A DNA stretch of 10,094 nucleotides, taken from a virus. Positions 1,238-7,033 of the stretch are shown here, piece after piece. The stretch is from the UHGV virus genome UHGV-0117807; one strand, given 5' to 3'. How positions within the stretch are numbered: position 1 is the stretch's first letter; each line of letters opens with the position of its first letter. The position numbers and the translations under genes are program-made. A model generated the notes under the pieces. That model was not told where the DNA came from and made no database searches. It saw nothing but the letters and a program-made list of their open reading frames with translations.

Positions 1238-1377
1238 GTGAGATCCTCATTTTTGGGTGTTAGAATCCCCGGACCATTGATAGCGCCCATTGGGTTAACT
1301 TTGGTTTTAATGTTGTTTCCGGTGTAACTTTGGTCGGTGAGGCCGGACATGGCGGGCCCACTTCGGTGGGCTTTCGC

Positions 1378-1665
1378 TTAACTGACGGCTACGATCGCCT
1401 CATTCATAAAATCTTGCTTGTATGTACGGTAGGTTCCCCAGCCGGCGTAATCGCTATCGCTGATTTTGAGTACCAGCAAGCTGATCTCCTCAATGGCGCA
1501 GTGCGGGCAATCAAACTTGCCAAGCACATAGCCACCGTCGAGAATGACTGTTGTTTCACCGTTTGTAGTTGAGTGAATAACGCCTGATACTTTCTTCTCG
1601 CAGTTGAATGCAGCCACTTCTTTATTCACTGCTTTCAGGTTCATTTCGATTTTTACGATTTCCAT
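1378..1665 (-). CDS. Hypothetical 95-aa protein at the RacC-equivalent position; contains CxxxC and CxxC pairs
   Basis: ORF-track ORF with GGAG 5 nt upstream of the ATG. It sits between the recE-like and ydaE-like genes on the same strand, and its size (95 aa) is close to Rac RacC (~91 aa). No recognisable catalytic motif. Confidence 0.5.
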   Translation of the reverse strand: MEIVKIEMNLKAVNKEVAAFNCEKKVSGVIHSTTNGETTVILDGGYVLGKFDCPHCAIEEISLLVLKISDSDYAGWGTYRTYKQDFMNEAIVAVS

Positions 1666-1750
1666 AAAATCTCCAGTTGTTAAATTAAGGGTGTAAGAAG
1701 CCGCGCCAAATTAATGGCGAATTTTTCATTTCATATTTCAGGACTGCTAT

Positions 1751-1909
1751 TTAACTTTCGTGCGCCATCTGGTCGTATTCAGCGCATTGCTTAGAGCAAT
1801 ATTCTTTTTCTTTCTGTGCCAGTTGCGAACCGTTGAGATAGAGCAAGGTGCTCTTTACTTCTGCGCCTTCTTCAACAGGCTTGTGGCAATAACCACATTC
1901 TTTTTTCAT
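1751..1909 (-). CDS. Small 52-aa four-cysteine (zinc-ribbon-like) protein, YdaE-like by position and size
   Basis: Below the 60-aa cutoff of the ORF track; own translation: MKKECGYCHKPVEEGAEVKSTLLYLNGSQLAQKEKEYCSKQCAEYDQMAHES. AGGA lies upstream of the ATG (rc of 1907-1909) and the stop is the rc of 1751-1753. It has a CxxC plus CxxxC arrangement, and the Rac ydaE product is a ~56-aa protein at the same relative position. Confidence 0.5.
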   Translation of the reverse strand: MKKECGYCHKPVEEGAEVKSTLLYLNGSQLAQKEKEYCSKQCAEYDQMAHES

Positions 1910-1942
1910 CACCTGTCCTTAAAGTGTTTTGGCAACTCTCCG

Positions 1943-2149
1943 TTAATGGCTGAGGCCATTCCCCAGACCGTTCAGATAAACTTCAACCAGCAAATCCCTG
2001 GTGTAAGTCATCTCAACGCCGCGATGCAGATACAAACGACCACGAGCATTAGCTGATGCCGTCCAGGTTGAATCCTTGTGTTTGACGAGCATCCCCGGCT
2101 GAACTGCGCCGCGGTTTACTGTCTGTGTACCGTAGTGCTGGTTTACCAT
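1943..2149 (-). CDS. Small 68-aa protein at the KilR-equivalent position (putative host-killing/division-inhibitor type early gene)
   Basis: ORF-track ORF with AGAGGA 5 nt upstream of the ATG (rc of 2147-2149). It is positionally and size-equivalent to Rac kilR (~73 aa). I cannot confirm sequence similarity from memory. Confidence 0.45.
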   Translation of the reverse strand: MVNQHYGTQTVNRGAVQPGMLVKHKDSTWTASANARGRLYLHRGVEMTYTRDLLVEVYLNGLGNGLSH

Positions 2150-2286
2150 GATTTCCTCTTGGCCTTATCGCGGCGAACGGAACGGTTAATACAAGACTTC
2201 AACGCATTTATTCAGTGTTTCAATGGGCGGTGGATGGCCGCCGGTTGTCATAAATGGGCAGACTCGAAAATCTGCCTATGTATGGC

Positions 2287-2310
2287 CGATAAAAAACCCG
2301 CCGGAGCGGG
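2287..2310 (-). terminator. Rho-independent terminator immediately after the 222-aa gene (tL1-like position)
   Basis: The plus strand reads aaaaaaCCCGCcggaGCGGG (2291-2310). On the minus strand this is a CCCGC/GCGGG stem with a 4-nt loop followed by TTTTTT, starting 1 nt after the stop codon (rc of 2311-2313). Confidence 0.5.
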
Positions 2311-2979
2311 TCATTCATTCTTTGGTATGCCGCAAAGGGCGTTTAGCGTTTCAACGGGAATGGCAAGTGCGGTGCTGGTCGCTTCACGGCGTTCCACCTC
2401 AGGCAAATATGGCACTGCCTCAGGCCACATCTCAGCCAGTTTTTTAACAGTTGAGACTTTGGTTAGAGCACCTTTAACCTGCAATTGGAAGGCATCAACT
2501 TCATCGTAAAGAACGTTGATGGTTACCGTCGATTCAGTGAGTCGGTCGTGTAATTTTCCAACTTTCTTCAGCGTGCTGTAACTTTCAGGAACGAAACCCG
2601 AATCAATTACAGGCGCGAAGGAAGCTCCGAAGAACAGGTCGCTTTCAAGATCGTGCTTACCAATATGTTTTCCACGGTGGCGATAGCGATGATCCAAACC
2701 GTTCCTGGCTAATTCGTGATACTCACCATTAATAATGACCTTTAAAATTGCAGTTTTAGCGCCGACCTGCATCTTGATGAAGGAGTTATCTTTGAAATCT
2801 TCCCGAGCCTTAGTTATTTGCTCATCGCTAGTGTTTTCCTGCTTGAGCAATGCCTGTCGAATTTCTTCAACAATTTTCGCCCTCTCATTAACCGCAGCTT
2901 TCGCTTTCTCAAACAATGGGGATGCGAGAAGCAGGTTATGGCATAGCTGATTTTTAATTTCGTTGTTAAGACGAATCAT
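2311..2979 (-). CDS. Hypothetical 222-aa soluble protein of unknown function (accessory gene in the leftward early operon)
   Basis: ORF-track ORF with GAGGG ~7 nt upstream of the ATG and a dedicated terminator downstream. No obvious transmembrane segment and no Walker or nuclease motif. It has a basic cluster RNGLDHRYRHRGKHIGKH containing R-x4-H spacings. Confidence 0.7.
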   Translation of the reverse strand: MIRLNNEIKNQLCHNLLLASPLFEKAKAAVNERAKIVEEIRQALLKQENTSDEQITKAREDFKDNSFIKMQVGAKTAILKVIINGEYHELARNGLDHRYRHRGKHIGKHDLESDLFFGASFAPVIDSGFVPESYSTLKKVGKLHDRLTESTVTINVLYDEVDAFQLQVKGALTKVSTVKKLAEMWPEAVPYLPEVERREATSTALAIPVETLNALCGIPKNE

Positions 2980-3036
2980 TGACTTACCCTCTGTCGTTAC
3001 CCGCTGATGCGGGAGAAATGCTTTATCTATCAGCTT

Positions 3037-3249
3037 CTACAACTCATCACGAATCTGTGAGAGTGTGCTGATCGCCTGGTAATGACCGCGACGCTGCTCT
3101 TCTGTTTTGAACGCACGCATATCGTCTTTTATCGATGCGATTGCCTTATTCAGAACTTCCACTTGCGCTTCTTTAATCGCCTGTTTGCGTGGCTTCTGAC
3201 GCTTCTTAGGAAGGTCTCTTAAACACGCCGGAATGTATGTCTGAGTCAT
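3037..3249 (-). CDS. Small basic 70-aa protein, first gene downstream of the putative PL; possible N-like antiterminator or other early regulator
   Basis: Strong ribosome-binding site (AAGAGGA, then 6 nt, then ATG; rc of 3247-3249). The N-terminus is Lys/Arg-rich (LPKKRQKPRKQAIKEAQ). It occupies the lambda N position (PL, ~300-nt leader, gene). No sequence identity to lambda or P22 N is claimed. Confidence 0.5.
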   Translation of the reverse strand: MTQTYIPACLRDLPKKRQKPRKQAIKEAQVEVLNKAIASIKDDMRAFKTEEQRRGHYQAISTLSQIRDEL

Positions 3250-3550
3250 AAAAAATCCTCTTGTGATTCAGCCCAGCCCACTCAACTTCGAATGGACTGG
3301 AATAAATCTGTTTGCGCTTCGCACCTCTCATCCCGCCAGTGTTGCCCGTTCCCACGCCTTTATCGCTCTCGCGAGGGGGTAGCCTCACACCGACCGGATC
3401 GCGCCCGGTGCTGCGCCGAATTTGTACGTTGGGGTCTAAACAGGATTACCGAGTGCTGTTCCGACTTTGCATGTTGTTAAAAAGCAGGCGACTTGCTGTC
3501 CGCCGCTGGCTAACTTCGCTCAGCTGTCGATGTTTCGTTTCGATGGGCTA

Positions 3551-3613
3551 ACAATAGCTAAAGCGATTATTTCAGTCAATCGCCAAAACGATATTTACCA
3601 TCGATAAAGCGAT
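3551..3613 (-). promoter_or_regulatory. Putative leftward early promoter and operators (PL/OL-like)
   Basis: On the minus strand there is a TTGACT -35 (rc of 3574-3579), a 17-nt spacer and a TATTGT -10 (rc of 3551-3556). Three copies of the 14-bp palindrome ATCG-N6-CGAT are present: 3579-3592 and 3600-3613 are perfect, 3554-3567 matches 7 of 8. The same palindrome occurs in the cI-cro intergenic region. Confidence 0.45.
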
Positions 3614-3714
3614 AATGCATTGAATGTTAAAGCGATATTTTTTTTAAACGAAGTAGGAAAAAGTGATGTTGAAGGCGGTTTGATGGGAGAGAATTGAAGG
3701 TAGAAGATGGAGGT

Positions 3715-3739
3715 ATAAAAAAACCGGCTTTCGCCGGTT
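3715..3739 (-). terminator. Rho-independent terminator ending the cI-lipoprotein (lysogenic) transcript
   Basis: The plus strand reads aaaaaaaAACCGGCtttcGCCGGTT (3715-3739). On the minus strand this is a 7-bp stem (AACCGGC/GCCGGTT), a 4-nt loop and TTTTTTT, lying 7 nt after the lipoprotein stop (rc of 3746-3748). Confidence 0.6.
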
Positions 3740-3745
3740 GGTTAA

Positions 3746-4222
3746 TCAGTTGCAGTTAACTTTCCTGCCTACGAAGATCAAGTCTCCGTACTCGTCATTG
3801 GTATTCTTAAACCTAAGAACCTGTCCGTTGCGGATAAAGGCCCAGTAGAGTTGCTTACCTGTGTATCCGCCATAAGAATTTTTTGCGTTCACGAAAACAC
3901 ACGTCGAGTAACCGTAAACAAAGTTCCTGTTCTCAACCATAACCTCTTTGCGGAGTGGAGAGAAGTCGCTGAATTTCGCGGAATCAGGATCCTTTAAGGC
4001 ATCCTTGATTGTTGCCTGAACCAGCTCTTTATAGTTCTTTGGCTTTTCACCGACATCGGCTGTTTCAAGATTGATATTTCTCACCTTCTCGGCAAACTCG
4101 GCATCATGTTTTTTAGCCTCAGCCATCTTCTGATCGTAATCAGAAGCAATACGGGCATAAGGTGGTTGCGCACACGCGCTGAGCAATGCAGAGGCGATAA
4201 CTACAGCTGCTAATTTTTTCAT
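3746..4222 (-). CDS. Predicted secreted lipoprotein (158 aa), co-transcribed downstream of cI; candidate lysogenic-conversion or superinfection-exclusion factor
   Basis: The N-terminus MKKLAAVVIASALLSACAQ is a classic signal peptide with lipobox L-S-A-C. The mature part is hydrophilic. The start lies only 35 nt after the cI stop on the same strand, and a terminator follows. Confidence 0.75.
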   Translation of the reverse strand: MKKLAAVVIASALLSACAQPPYARIASDYDQKMAEAKKHDAEFAEKVRNINLETADVGEKPKNYKELVQATIKDALKDPDSAKFSDFSPLRKEVMVENRNFVYGYSTCVFVNAKNSYGGYTGKQLYWAFIRNGQVLRFKNTNDEYGDLIFVGRKVNCN

Positions 4223-4257
4223 CTTCCCATCCCAGAGTAATTACTGTGTAAATTTTG

Positions 4258-4950
4258 TTATGCGAATCTTTTATAATCGACTGACTGTCTCAGCAGTACT
4301 TTAGCCATGACGTAGAACGCGTCCTCATCTTCAGGCTCGACGTACCATTTTTCGTAAATCGGGTTATCGGATATTACTGCCAGCCTGTCTCGCTGCATCT
4401 GCAGGCGCTTAACGTGCAGTGTCTTCCCAAATACGAAGACGTATACACCGTCACCATCAAAGTGCGTAACACCGGTATCAACGAAGATCTGATCACCAGG
4501 TGAAATAGTGCCGTCCATGCTGTCACCATTAACTGTGATCACTTTGACATGCGCAGCTGGACGATTGCCGAACAAGGCTCGCGCCTGCTCAGTCGTGTAT
4601 TCAATGGCTCGGATAGTTTCAATGAAATCGCTGGTGACAATGCTGCCCGGTCCAGCGCTGGCTTTAACGTCGAGTACATCCACGCGGTAAATCCCATTCA
4701 GTGACGGCTTAACCTGGTATAGCGCAGACGGTTCTCTTGCGCTACTGGAAGCCATTTCCCCTTCACCAGTAGACAGCCACTCCGGCCGCACACCAAGAAC
4801 AGAGGCAATCTCAACAGTTTTACGGGAGCCGTTCGCTTCCTTGAGTAGCTTATTGACGCTGGACTGAGCCATGCCGACATCTTTGGCTAATCGGCCCTGT
4901 GTATATCCAGCATATTTCATTGCCTGCGCCAGGCGCTCCGAGAATCCCAT
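4258..4950 (-). CDS. cI: cI-type prophage repressor (N-terminal HTH, C-terminal S24/LexA-like autopeptidase)
   Basis: ORF-track ORF. HTH region YTQGRLAKDVGMAQSSVNKL. Probable Ala-Gly cleavage site in KASAGPG. S24 catalytic Ser in VNGDSMDG and Lys in HVKRL. ATG at 4950 is preferred (AGAGGTGA SD with 5-nt spacing); the in-frame GTG at 4956 is an alternative start. Confidence 0.9.
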   Translation of the reverse strand: MGFSERLAQAMKYAGYTQGRLAKDVGMAQSSVNKLLKEANGSRKTVEIASVLGVRPEWLSTGEGEMASSSAREPSALYQVKPSLNGIYRVDVLDVKASAGPGSIVTSDFIETIRAIEYTTEQARALFGNRPAAHVKVITVNGDSMDGTISPGDQIFVDTGVTHFDGDGVYVFVFGKTLHVKRLQMQRDRLAVISDNPIYEKWYVEPEDEDAFYVMAKVLLRQSVDYKRFA

Positions 4951-4981: not shown

Positions 4982-5063
4982 ATCGCTCAAGCAATTATTT
5001 AGCAAAAAATCGCCTATGCGATTGACATTCGCTAAAGTGATAACCATAATCGCTTTAAACTGA
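4982..5063. promoter_or_regulatory. OR-like operator/promoter region between divergent cI and cro: rightward PR, operator palindromes, and an unlocated PRM
   Basis: PR has a TTGACA -35 (5022-5027), a 17-nt spacer and a CATAAT -10 (5045-5050). A perfect palindrome AATCGCctatGCGATT lies at 5008-5023, with weaker ATCG-N6-CGAT-like sites at 4982-4995 and 5028-5041 and an AATCGC half-site at 5048-5053. A leftward -10 candidate AATAAT (rc of 4994-4999) has no good -35, as expected for an activator-dependent PRM. Confidence 0.6.
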
Positions 5064-5994: not shown

Positions 5995-6141
5995 ATGGCA
6001 AAAAATCCACGCTATTACCATACCGCTGTACATAAAAACATAGCCCGCGACCGCTTCATCCGCTCGGTTAACCCGATTGTGGCAGAGAAGATGCGCGCCA
6101 TCCTGGAAGAATTGAAACGTAAGGAGAGTGGCCGTGGGTAA
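5995..6141 (+). CDS. Small basic protein (48 aa from ATG 5995; the ORF-track frame extends to GTG 5902)
   Basis: Strong SD AGGAGG (5985-5990) 4 nt before ATG 5995. Product MAKNPRYYHTAVHKNIARDRFIRSVNPIVAEKMRAILEELKRKESGRG. Its stop overlaps the start of the O-like gene. Function unknown. Confidence 0.4.
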   Translation: MAKNPRYYHTAVHKNIARDRFIRSVNPIVAEKMRAILEELKRKESGRG

Positions 6142-7033
6142 CGTATCCAATTTAGCCGAAGCCAGAGAGGCCAGAAGGCTCCAGAAACCGCGCACGAATG
6201 ACGGTAAGGGGTTTGCCTTGCTGCACCGTAAAATTATGGATGTGCCGTTCTACAAGGACGCTGAGGCGGCTCATTTATGGGTTCACCTGCTCCTGCGCGC
6301 TAATCACGAACAGACACTGGTATCGACTGATGTTGGCGATGTGATCTGCGAGCGCGGCGAGTTCATCACCGGGCGTAACACGCTGGCAATGGAAACGGGT
6401 TTGACCGCTGATCGCGTTAAATCACTGCTCCGTAAATTCCAGAATCTGGGCATGATCACCACCAAATCGAACAACCGTTTTACTGTTCTAAAAGTGGTCA
6501 AATATGACGAATATCAGTCAAATTTTTGTCCAGCCGATGTCCAGCCAGTGTCCAGCGCAAACGCAGTAATAACAATGCCTGTGGAGGATGTGTGTCCAGC
6601 CGATGTCCAGCCGGTGTCCACAGATAACAATATATTAAATAACTTACTACCTAAAGGTAGTAAGTATGTCGCAAATGACCAGAACCCCGCTGAAGAGAAA
6701 AAGTCCCGTTTGTCATGCGATGAAGTATGGCAATGCCTGAAAGACGAACTGCCTGAAGCCCGGGGATGGAGATGCCTCACTGATGAGCGACGCAATCTGA
6801 TCCGCACCTTCTGGGGTAAGGCTAACAAGATTGCCCGCAACCTGGACGGCAAGCCGATGGATATGGACGGTTTCAGAAGCTATCTGCGATATATCGCTCA
6901 AAACTGCCGCTGGATGCTTGAAGACCGACCAGACCAGAAATCCGGGAAAACCTGGCGCCGCATGAAATTCGATAAGTTCCTGACCGAAAAGCTCTACATC
7001 GAAGTGCGCGAGGGGGATCGTGATGACCGCTGA
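6134..7033 (+). CDS. Replication initiator, lambda O / P22 gp18-like (N-terminal DNA-binding domain, linker carrying the origin, C-terminal helicase-recruitment domain)
   Basis: ORF-track ORF (GTG 6128; GTG 6134 has better spacing from the AAGGAG SD). The N-terminal domain is a winged-HTH-like initiator fold. The central linker is encoded by the iteron repeats (CPADVQPVSS...CPADVQPVST). Its stop overlaps the helicase start. Confidence 0.8.
   Translation: MGNVSNLAEAREARRLQKPRTNDGKGFALLHRKIMDVPFYKDAEAAHLWVHLLLRANHEQTLVSTDVGDVICERGEFITGRNTLAMETGLTADRVKSLLRKFQNLGMITTKSNNRFTVLKVVKYDEYQSNFCPADVQPVSSANAVITMPVEDVCPADVQPVSTDNNILNNLLPKGSKYVANDQNPAEEKKSRLSCDEVWQCLKDELPEARGWRCLTDERRNLIRTFWGKANKIARNLDGKPMDMDGFRSYLRYIAQNCRWMLEDRPDQKSGKTWRRMKFDKFLTEKLYIEVREGDRDDR
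6527..6664. repeat. Putative phage replication origin inside the O-like gene: two 31-bp direct repeats, each with three ~11-bp iterons, then an AT-rich segment with a perfect 9-bp inverted repeat
   Basis: TGTCCAGCCGATGTCCAGCCAGTGTCCAGCGC at 6527-6558 and TGTCCAGCCGATGTCCAGCCGGTGTCCACAG at 6593-6623, with the GTCCAGC core recurring at 11-bp phasing. An AT-rich stretch (6624-6642) follows. CTTACTACC (6643-6651), taaa, GGTAGTAAG (6656-6664) form a perfect inverted repeat. Confidence 0.6.

Follow-up and report, generated by a model that had tools for sequence, protein, structure and literature searches.

Profile matching identified the 222-amino acid (AA) protein encoded on the minus strand of the window, the whole 10,094-nt stretch of virus genome UHGV-0117807 analysed here, as a canonical, stand-alone and full-length member of the Nmad5 (Nucleotide modification associated domain 5) family, PF18757 / PHROG 1965. 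Its gene is carried by a mobile cassette that occupies a variable slot of a repressor-controlled early-left operon, upstream of kil-ydaE-recE-recT. As to function, we give a probability of roughly 0.4 to the reading that Nmad5 is an early, non-catalytic binding protein that serves counter-defence or host takeover as an accessory factor, in the setting of DNA replication and recombination.

The match to PF18757 scored 107.6 bits (cutoff, 27 bits; E=1.2e-30) and aligned residues 2-219 of the protein with profile positions 1-206 of 206. PHROG 1965, to which no function is assigned, was matched at E=2.5e-49. The original prediction had found no assignable motif in this protein, a statement overturned by the end-to-end PF18757 match and by the PHROG match. 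A 100% tblastn match was obtained with the E. coli RefSeq protein WP_023277197.1, named 'Nmad5 family putative nucleotide modification protein'. Gene, family, and RefSeq name had all been catalogued before, and the annotation question is settled. The whole-gene dN/dS, measured against six cassette variants, was 0.04-0.22, indicative of purifying selection; because of this and the full-length HMM match, the 222-AA ORF is regarded as a real gene and not a chance ORF.

The 90%-identity cluster of the protein holds 285 sequences, and phmmer, run exhaustively on 1.84 billion representatives, returned 132 relatives at E<=0.001, nearly all of them stand-alone proteins of 170-290 AA. The profile search gave single-domain PF18757 proteins only, with no domain fusions, and the query length fits the stand-alone phage and prophage type of about 180-250 AA. 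The homologs were set in phages and prophages, and a search with a 15-sequence motif subset yielded 13 viral and 5 genomic loci. The NCBIfam scan of the protein gave no match, and the PADLOC scan, whose library consists of defence and not anti-defence proteins, returned 0 families. Other labels were considered and rejected. The 'DNA polymerase' label of phrog_15487, a profile of ~250 positions that matched 18 of 90 Nmad5 members, is probably a misannotation because the match is confined to the C-terminal Nmad5 motif. The BFVD entry A0A2I6PHY8 from Pseudomonas phage PMBT3, labelled 'DNA polymerase A', showed weak resemblance to the Nmad5 model, and the family of phrog_15487 and A0A2I6PHY8 (~250 AA) is probably a divergent Nmad5 branch with misleading annotation. 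The 'NMAD' domain found in a validated defence system from DefensePredictor belongs to Nmad2 (PF18753) and not to Nmad5, so it is irrelevant here.

The features of the locus are collected in Table 1. The ORF, the ribosome-binding site (RBS), and the dedicated terminator that had been proposed for this gene were all confirmed. The terminator hairpin has a 7-bp stem (5 GC pairs) and a loop of 4 followed by UUUUUU, and its minimum free energy was -16.1 kcal/mol (z=-2.9 relative to shuffles).

Table 1 Features of the Nmad5 locus and its surroundings in the window.
Feature	Coordinates	Strand	Description
Nmad5-family CDS	2311..2979	minus	ATG start, 222 AA, stop codon within coordinates
Shine-Dalgarno GAGGG	2987..2991	minus	7 nt 5' of ATG, read from sequence
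Intrinsic terminator	2289..2312	minus	hairpin 2312-2295 plus U-run; overlaps Nmad5 stop codon
Mobile cassette, maximal extent	2136..3024	minus	blastn of window 1300-4300 against loci L008-L026
42-nt conserved leader / left junction	2983..3024	minus	hairpin CCCGC-AUCA-GCGGG, then RBS
Candidate PL promoter and operator-like repeats	3551..3636	minus	sigma-70-like consensus scan, repeat motif
kil (FtsZ-inhibitor family)	1943..2149	minus	PHROG 294, E=1.7e-34; first gene past cassette terminator
70-AA basic ORF	3037..3249	minus	PHROG 5305 (no function assigned); facultative neighbour, outside cassette

The cassette spans ~0.8-0.9 kb and consists of a 45-nt leader with the RBS, the ORF, and its own terminator, which lies within the cassette DNA shared by related loci and so moves with it. 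The left junction is sharp, with every cassette match beginning at window position 3024 (45 nt before the ATG), and the position of the right junction ranges from 2136 to 2226. At 89-100% identity, the cassette was present in ~18 IMG/VR lambdoid contigs whose neighbouring genes otherwise differ, and one further contig carried it at 72%. It lies 5' of three different RecT+YqaJ pairs in these contigs, and RecE/RecT take the place of these pairs in the window. Among 5,426 complete E. coli genomes, 8 carried the full cassette. Prophages with 99-100% identical orf95, YdaE, and Kil proteins have other, unrelated small genes where the window has Nmad5 and the 70-AA ORF. The slot had been described as a cargo site and its comparison across related prophages had been recommended; the gene content at the Nmad5 position does vary, and the cassette recurs in many backbones. 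Loci without Nmad5 also match the leader in blastn. In other prophages it stands before cargo genes unrelated to Nmad5, and searched alone it has matches in many E. coli genomes, including K-12 strains. Its 42 nt fold weakly (-10.1 kcal/mol, z=-1.6 against shuffles), and it may be a module-boundary or recombination linker, or an RNA element. A protein of ~276-369 AA without a Pfam match was encoded 3' of the cassette and 5' of RecT+YqaJ in 18 of the 19 lambdoid backbones examined (for example L011:7316-8422, plus strand).

Cargo of the lambdoid early-left slot in phage lambda and the Rac prophage includes Ral, SieB, and similar proteins. Nmad5 resembles such cargo in its location, a slot of variable content that separates PL from the kil/recombination genes, and in its accessory, mosaic distribution. 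Unlike SieB, it has no transmembrane segment; an internal promoter was not detected. In 19-residue Kyte-Doolittle windows along the 222-AA protein, the maximum mean was 1.18 and no segment of membrane-helix grade was found, and the earlier call of a soluble protein that is not of the SieB membrane type therefore stands.

The window corresponds to the immunity and early region of a lambdoid prophage of the Rac type. Its genes are ordered as RecE/RecT (at or beyond the left edge), a 95-AA ORF, YdaE, Kil, Nmad5, the 70-AA ORF, and a lipoprotein gene, beyond which lie an S24-type repressor, a YdaS-like Cro, a YdaT-like CII, and replication genes. Read leftward, kil, whose NCBIfam match of 60.5 bits fell below the 92-bit cutoff, is followed by ydaE and then by the RecE/RecT module. 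The candidate PL comprises a -35 box TTGACT (3579-3574), a 17-nt spacer, and a -10 box TATTGT (3556-3551) on the minus strand. Three TAAAGCGAT(A/T)A repeats starting at 3559, 3605, and 3628 surround it, and the same motif occurs again in the cI/cro intergenic region (4985-5057). The repeats on the PL side and the cI/cro side are consistent with OL and OR of this immunity type, the arrangement to be expected, and the candidate PL is presumed to be the source of the transcript reading into Nmad5. Because this operator-flanked candidate promoter lies upstream, Nmad5 is placed ~570 nt into a repressor-controlled leftward early operon; the promoter with its repeats and the recurrence of the motif at cI/cro support the operon position given in the original prediction. 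A sigma-70 consensus scan of 3300-2980 (minus) detected no promoter-like site within or just 5' of the cassette, and since the operator-flanked PL lies upstream, Nmad5 is probably silent in the lysogen, although a weak promoter or one not of the sigma-70 type may have escaped the scan. The 70-AA ORF and Nmad5 occurred together in only 4 of ~20 close loci (L001, L014, L016, and L017), so this ORF is not considered a partner of Nmad5.

Several observations were made on other genes of the window. The N-terminal segment of the 70-AA ORF is Lys/Arg-rich (LPKKRQKPRKQ). The 95-AA ORF (1378-1665, minus; PHROG 2434, no function assigned) corresponds to a RefSeq 'DNA breaking-rejoining protein', and all related E. 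coli records examined flag this counterpart as a frameshifted pseudogene. Just left of it, on the strand opposite to the early-left genes, the Rfam family isrB (RF01386, an Hfq-binding sRNA) was matched at 1279-1376 (plus), slightly above its gathering score (38.2 versus 35 bits, E=4e-4). Directly 3' of the repressor gene, a predicted lipoprotein of 158 AA is encoded at 3746-4222 (minus; PHROG 2320, no function assigned), with a lipobox LSAC ending the signal peptide and a strong terminator of its own at 3739-3722 (-12.3 kcal/mol, z=-4.05). In lambda, rexAB lies directly downstream of the repressor gene. Among the genes of the window, this lipoprotein is the more plausible candidate for a conversion or exclusion factor expressed in the lysogen. 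Inside a replication-initiator-like ORF (6128-7033), iteron-like direct repeats (TGTCCAGCCGATGTCCAGCC and variants) were found at 6511-6620 (plus), including 33-nt copies at 6522-6554 and 6588-6620 that encode the repeated peptide PADVQPVS. The lambda ori lies inside gene O, and these repeats are probably the phage replication origin.

Sequence conservation in the family is concentrated at the two ends of the protein. In an alignment of 90 Nmad5 sequences, W185, P186, and N213 were invariant; T177, L181, P193, L212, and P219 were conserved at >=90%, and R3, L4, G85, G94, and P131 were strongly conserved too. The consensus is R-L-(T/N)-x-x-I-R at the N terminus and T-V-K-K-L-x-E-x-W-P-E-A-x-x-L-L-P ... 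L-N-x-x-x-G-(L/I)-P at the C terminus, and the query carries R3, L4, T177, K179, K180, L181, W185, P186, E187, P193, L212, N213, G217, and P219. The middle of these proteins varies in length and sequence, and the family alignment contained no invariant Asp, His, Cys, or Ser. In the predicted model, residues 6-47 and 143-172 form long helices and residues 78-91 a beta-hairpin; a loop of little order and a small helical unit at the C terminus are the other elements. When PDB sequences were searched with a profile, only coiled-coil noise came up (E of 0.14 or worse). The structure search of BFVD with the Nmad5 model recovered other Nmad5 proteins only, and the fold is therefore considered to be without a characterised relative; no enzyme-like fold occurred among the structural matches. 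DNA mimicry of the Gam, Ocr, or ArdA type was also considered. The query has a pI of 7.07 and a net charge of 0, with a family median pI of about 7, and no such proteins were among the structural matches; this reading was dropped because the family is charge-neutral.

A basic R/H patch in the middle of the protein had been likened, through its R-x4-H spacings, to HEPN-type RNase motifs. The patch itself is present at residues 92-109 (RNGLDHRYRHRGKHIGKH), but the spacing is superficial and not conserved. Residues 95-110 correspond to a gap in ~100 of 121 homologs and the cluster is lost already at 41% identity; the basic His/Arg insertion (residues ~95-110) is specific to the lineage of the query clade. 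The R-x4-H spacing within the basic patch is the only likeness to the HEPN RNases of abortive-infection systems, in which the motif is located at a helix N-terminus, whereas the patch of the query lies in a loop, the least confident stretch of the model. Neither a HEPN family nor a HEPN or other nuclease fold was recovered in the HMM and structure searches.

In the literature found, the sole functional genetics of Nmad5 comes from Dhillonvirus, in which a lysine substitution defeats the defence system Tmn (PMC11846954). Mutants escaping Tmn share one nmad5 substitution, K216E in SM_A8 and K296E in SMS22 (Yamashita et al. 2025, PMC11846954). Reverting the K-to-E change restores sensitivity to Tmn, and introducing it confers escape (PMC11846954). 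Deletion of nmad5, by contrast, gives no escape, and the gene is dispensable; wild-type Nmad5 gives no protection against Tmn, and the authors ascribed their failure to clone the wild-type gene to toxicity (PMC11846954). In T2, the Tmn trigger is RIIB, described in a preprint as an early replisome-associated protein (PMC13001434). The Dhillonvirus proteins share full-length homology with the query at ~24% identity and are likewise encoded by an accessory gene, but they are longer (>=254 AA) with different middle insertions, and their gene lies on the opposite strand in the head-gene cluster of a lytic phage rather than in a lambdoid early-left operon. K216 of SM_A8 aligned with K180 of the query, the second lysine of the T-V-K-K-L motif.

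These data are best brought together by the binding-protein reading, which we hold at the tentative level given above. Nmad5 would be produced right after induction or infection, but not in the lysogen, and would act as a non-catalytic binding or adaptor protein. In the predicted structure, a helical stalk (helix 6-47 with helix 143-172) and a beta-hairpin accompany a poorly conserved mid-chain loop, and the N-terminal R-L-(T/N) motif and the C-terminal T-V-K-K-L-x-E-x-W-P-E ... L-N-x-x-x-G-L-P block may together constitute the functional site. The proposed juxtaposition of the two motifs is suggested by isolated beta-bridge residues 3 and 177 in the DSSP string. This site would engage a conserved factor, from host or phage, with a link to early DNA replication or recombination, and the engagement would modulate host interference or defence, making Nmad5 an accessory counter-defence or host-takeover factor. 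It would be neither a nuclease toxin nor, in the query phage, a DNA-modification enzyme, and the single K-to-E change at the K180-equivalent lysine would retune the interaction of Dhillonvirus Nmad5 with Tmn. The accessory and mobile behaviour of the gene, its early, promoter-proximal position, the family's want of catalytic-type invariant residues, and the K-to-E allele, which represents an altered function, all argue for this reading. Against it, no homology to characterised anti-defence proteins was found, and wild-type Dhillonvirus Nmad5 does not protect against Tmn. The regional dN/dS analysis, run as an arms-race test, detected no positive selection, with values <0.4 even in the variable middle region, and catalysis by conserved Arg, Lys, Glu, or Asn residues could still occur. 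A more specific version is possible but doubtful: Nmad5 might be a new-fold, non-enzymatic counter-defence or host-takeover factor whose T-V-K-K-L ... W-P-E surface binds a component of host immunity or repair and can be retargeted by K180E, for example onto Tmn.

The distribution of the family bears on the alternatives. Relatives at <60% identity were identified in ~190 phage genomes, most of which were Dhillonvirus; the others included phages of Vibrio, Salmonella, Edwardsiella, Serratia, and Klebsiella, and also Guernseyvirinae. Across unrelated lineages, Nmad5 occurs in operons with exonuclease/annealase or replication genes. The query has RecE/RecT, and in Klebsiella phage VLCpiS11a the gene is located early, with an exonuclease and a gp2.5-like SSAP (annealing protein) encoded 3' of it. 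On two metagenomic contigs it is promoter-proximal: L049 has ERF, YqaJ, and NinB 3' of it, and L047 a ParB-like gene together with genes for a helicase and a RecE-like nuclease (DUF3799). A Pfam scan of 107 neighbouring proteins from 14 distant Nmad5 loci returned mainly replication and recombination families, namely DUF2800 (3), PD-(D/E)XK (3), AAA_24 (2), Enc34-type SSB (2), and PolA (2), with RecT and YqaJ also among them, and genes immediately 5' of some distant members encode SSB-type acidic tails. Together with the replisome association of RIIB as a Tmn trigger, these neighbourhoods favour a rather unlikely but substantial alternative, in which Nmad5 is a structural helper of phage replication or recombination that, for instance, organises or protects intermediates or modulates a host nuclease such as RecBCD, and defence systems merely sense it as Tmn senses T2 RIIB. 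The association is weakly specific, however, because early operons hold many such genes anyway. The cassette is optional and rare, otherwise near-identical RecET prophages being without Nmad5, and it combines with several different recombinase types. An all-against-all BLAST of the four neighbours on either side at 16 distant loci revealed no conserved obligate partner gene. In Dhillonvirus SM_A8, Nmad5 is half of an opposite-strand two-gene unit among the head genes and is dispensable, which likewise speaks against a helper. The protein has no structural likeness to Gam or Ku-like proteins and is not acidic.

Less probable still is the role implied by the name, that of an accessory of post-replicative base hypermodification or other DNA modification. 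The near-identical loci L035 and L036 and the related L040 share a gene of ~380-420 AA directly 5' of Nmad5, which may resemble aGPT-Pplase. Hypermodification families formed a minority of the 107 neighbours (HMUDK, 2; PLP enzyme/PALP, 2; thymidylate synthase, 1), and a Dam-like gene follows Nmad5 in L049 by a faint match. In M6-like phages, Nmad5 is found beside an aGPT-Pplase, a 5-hmdU kinase, a radical-SAM enzyme, and a PLP enzyme, and it was this linkage to thymidine-hypermodification cassettes from which the family name was derived (PMC9476957). Such linkage was nevertheless seen in only a minority of the distant loci examined and is absent from most of the Nmad5 contexts analysed. Around the query gene, no base-modifying enzyme was found in the scanned parts of the window and none was annotated in the 14-kb RefSeq context. 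The missing linkage lowers the nucleotide-modification claim and leaves Nmad5 membership unaffected. Nmad5 also lacks conserved residues of the catalytic type, no enzyme-like fold was matched, and its modification role was predicted by association, with no experimental test in the literature found.

It is very improbable that Nmad5 acts in the sieB/ral slot as a toxin of abortive infection or superinfection exclusion, whether HEPN-like or of another kind: the slot does hold other cargo in related prophages, with a YafO-family toxin gene nearby, the gene has its own, moron-like terminator, and the failed cloning of the Dhillonvirus homolog was ascribed to toxicity, but the R/H patch is unconserved and lies in the least confident part of the model, neither a HEPN/nuclease fold nor a PADLOC match was obtained, the gene is probably silent in the lysogen, and a prophage-type exclusion role makes little sense because homologs are common in strictly lytic phages (Dhillonvirus and Guernseyvirinae).

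The current name of the family may mislead, because the cassette is independent of modification genes and the Tmn-escape lysine falls in the core motif. That lysine belongs to the most conserved motif of the family and is kept in the query, and an inducible E. coli prophage is therefore well suited to tests of Nmad5 function. If the reading of Nmad5 as a new-fold counter-defence or host-takeover factor is true, the 'nucleotide modification' name would be a guilt-by-association artefact, and the lambdoid cassette would provide a tractable E. coli system for a widespread family of early phage proteins.
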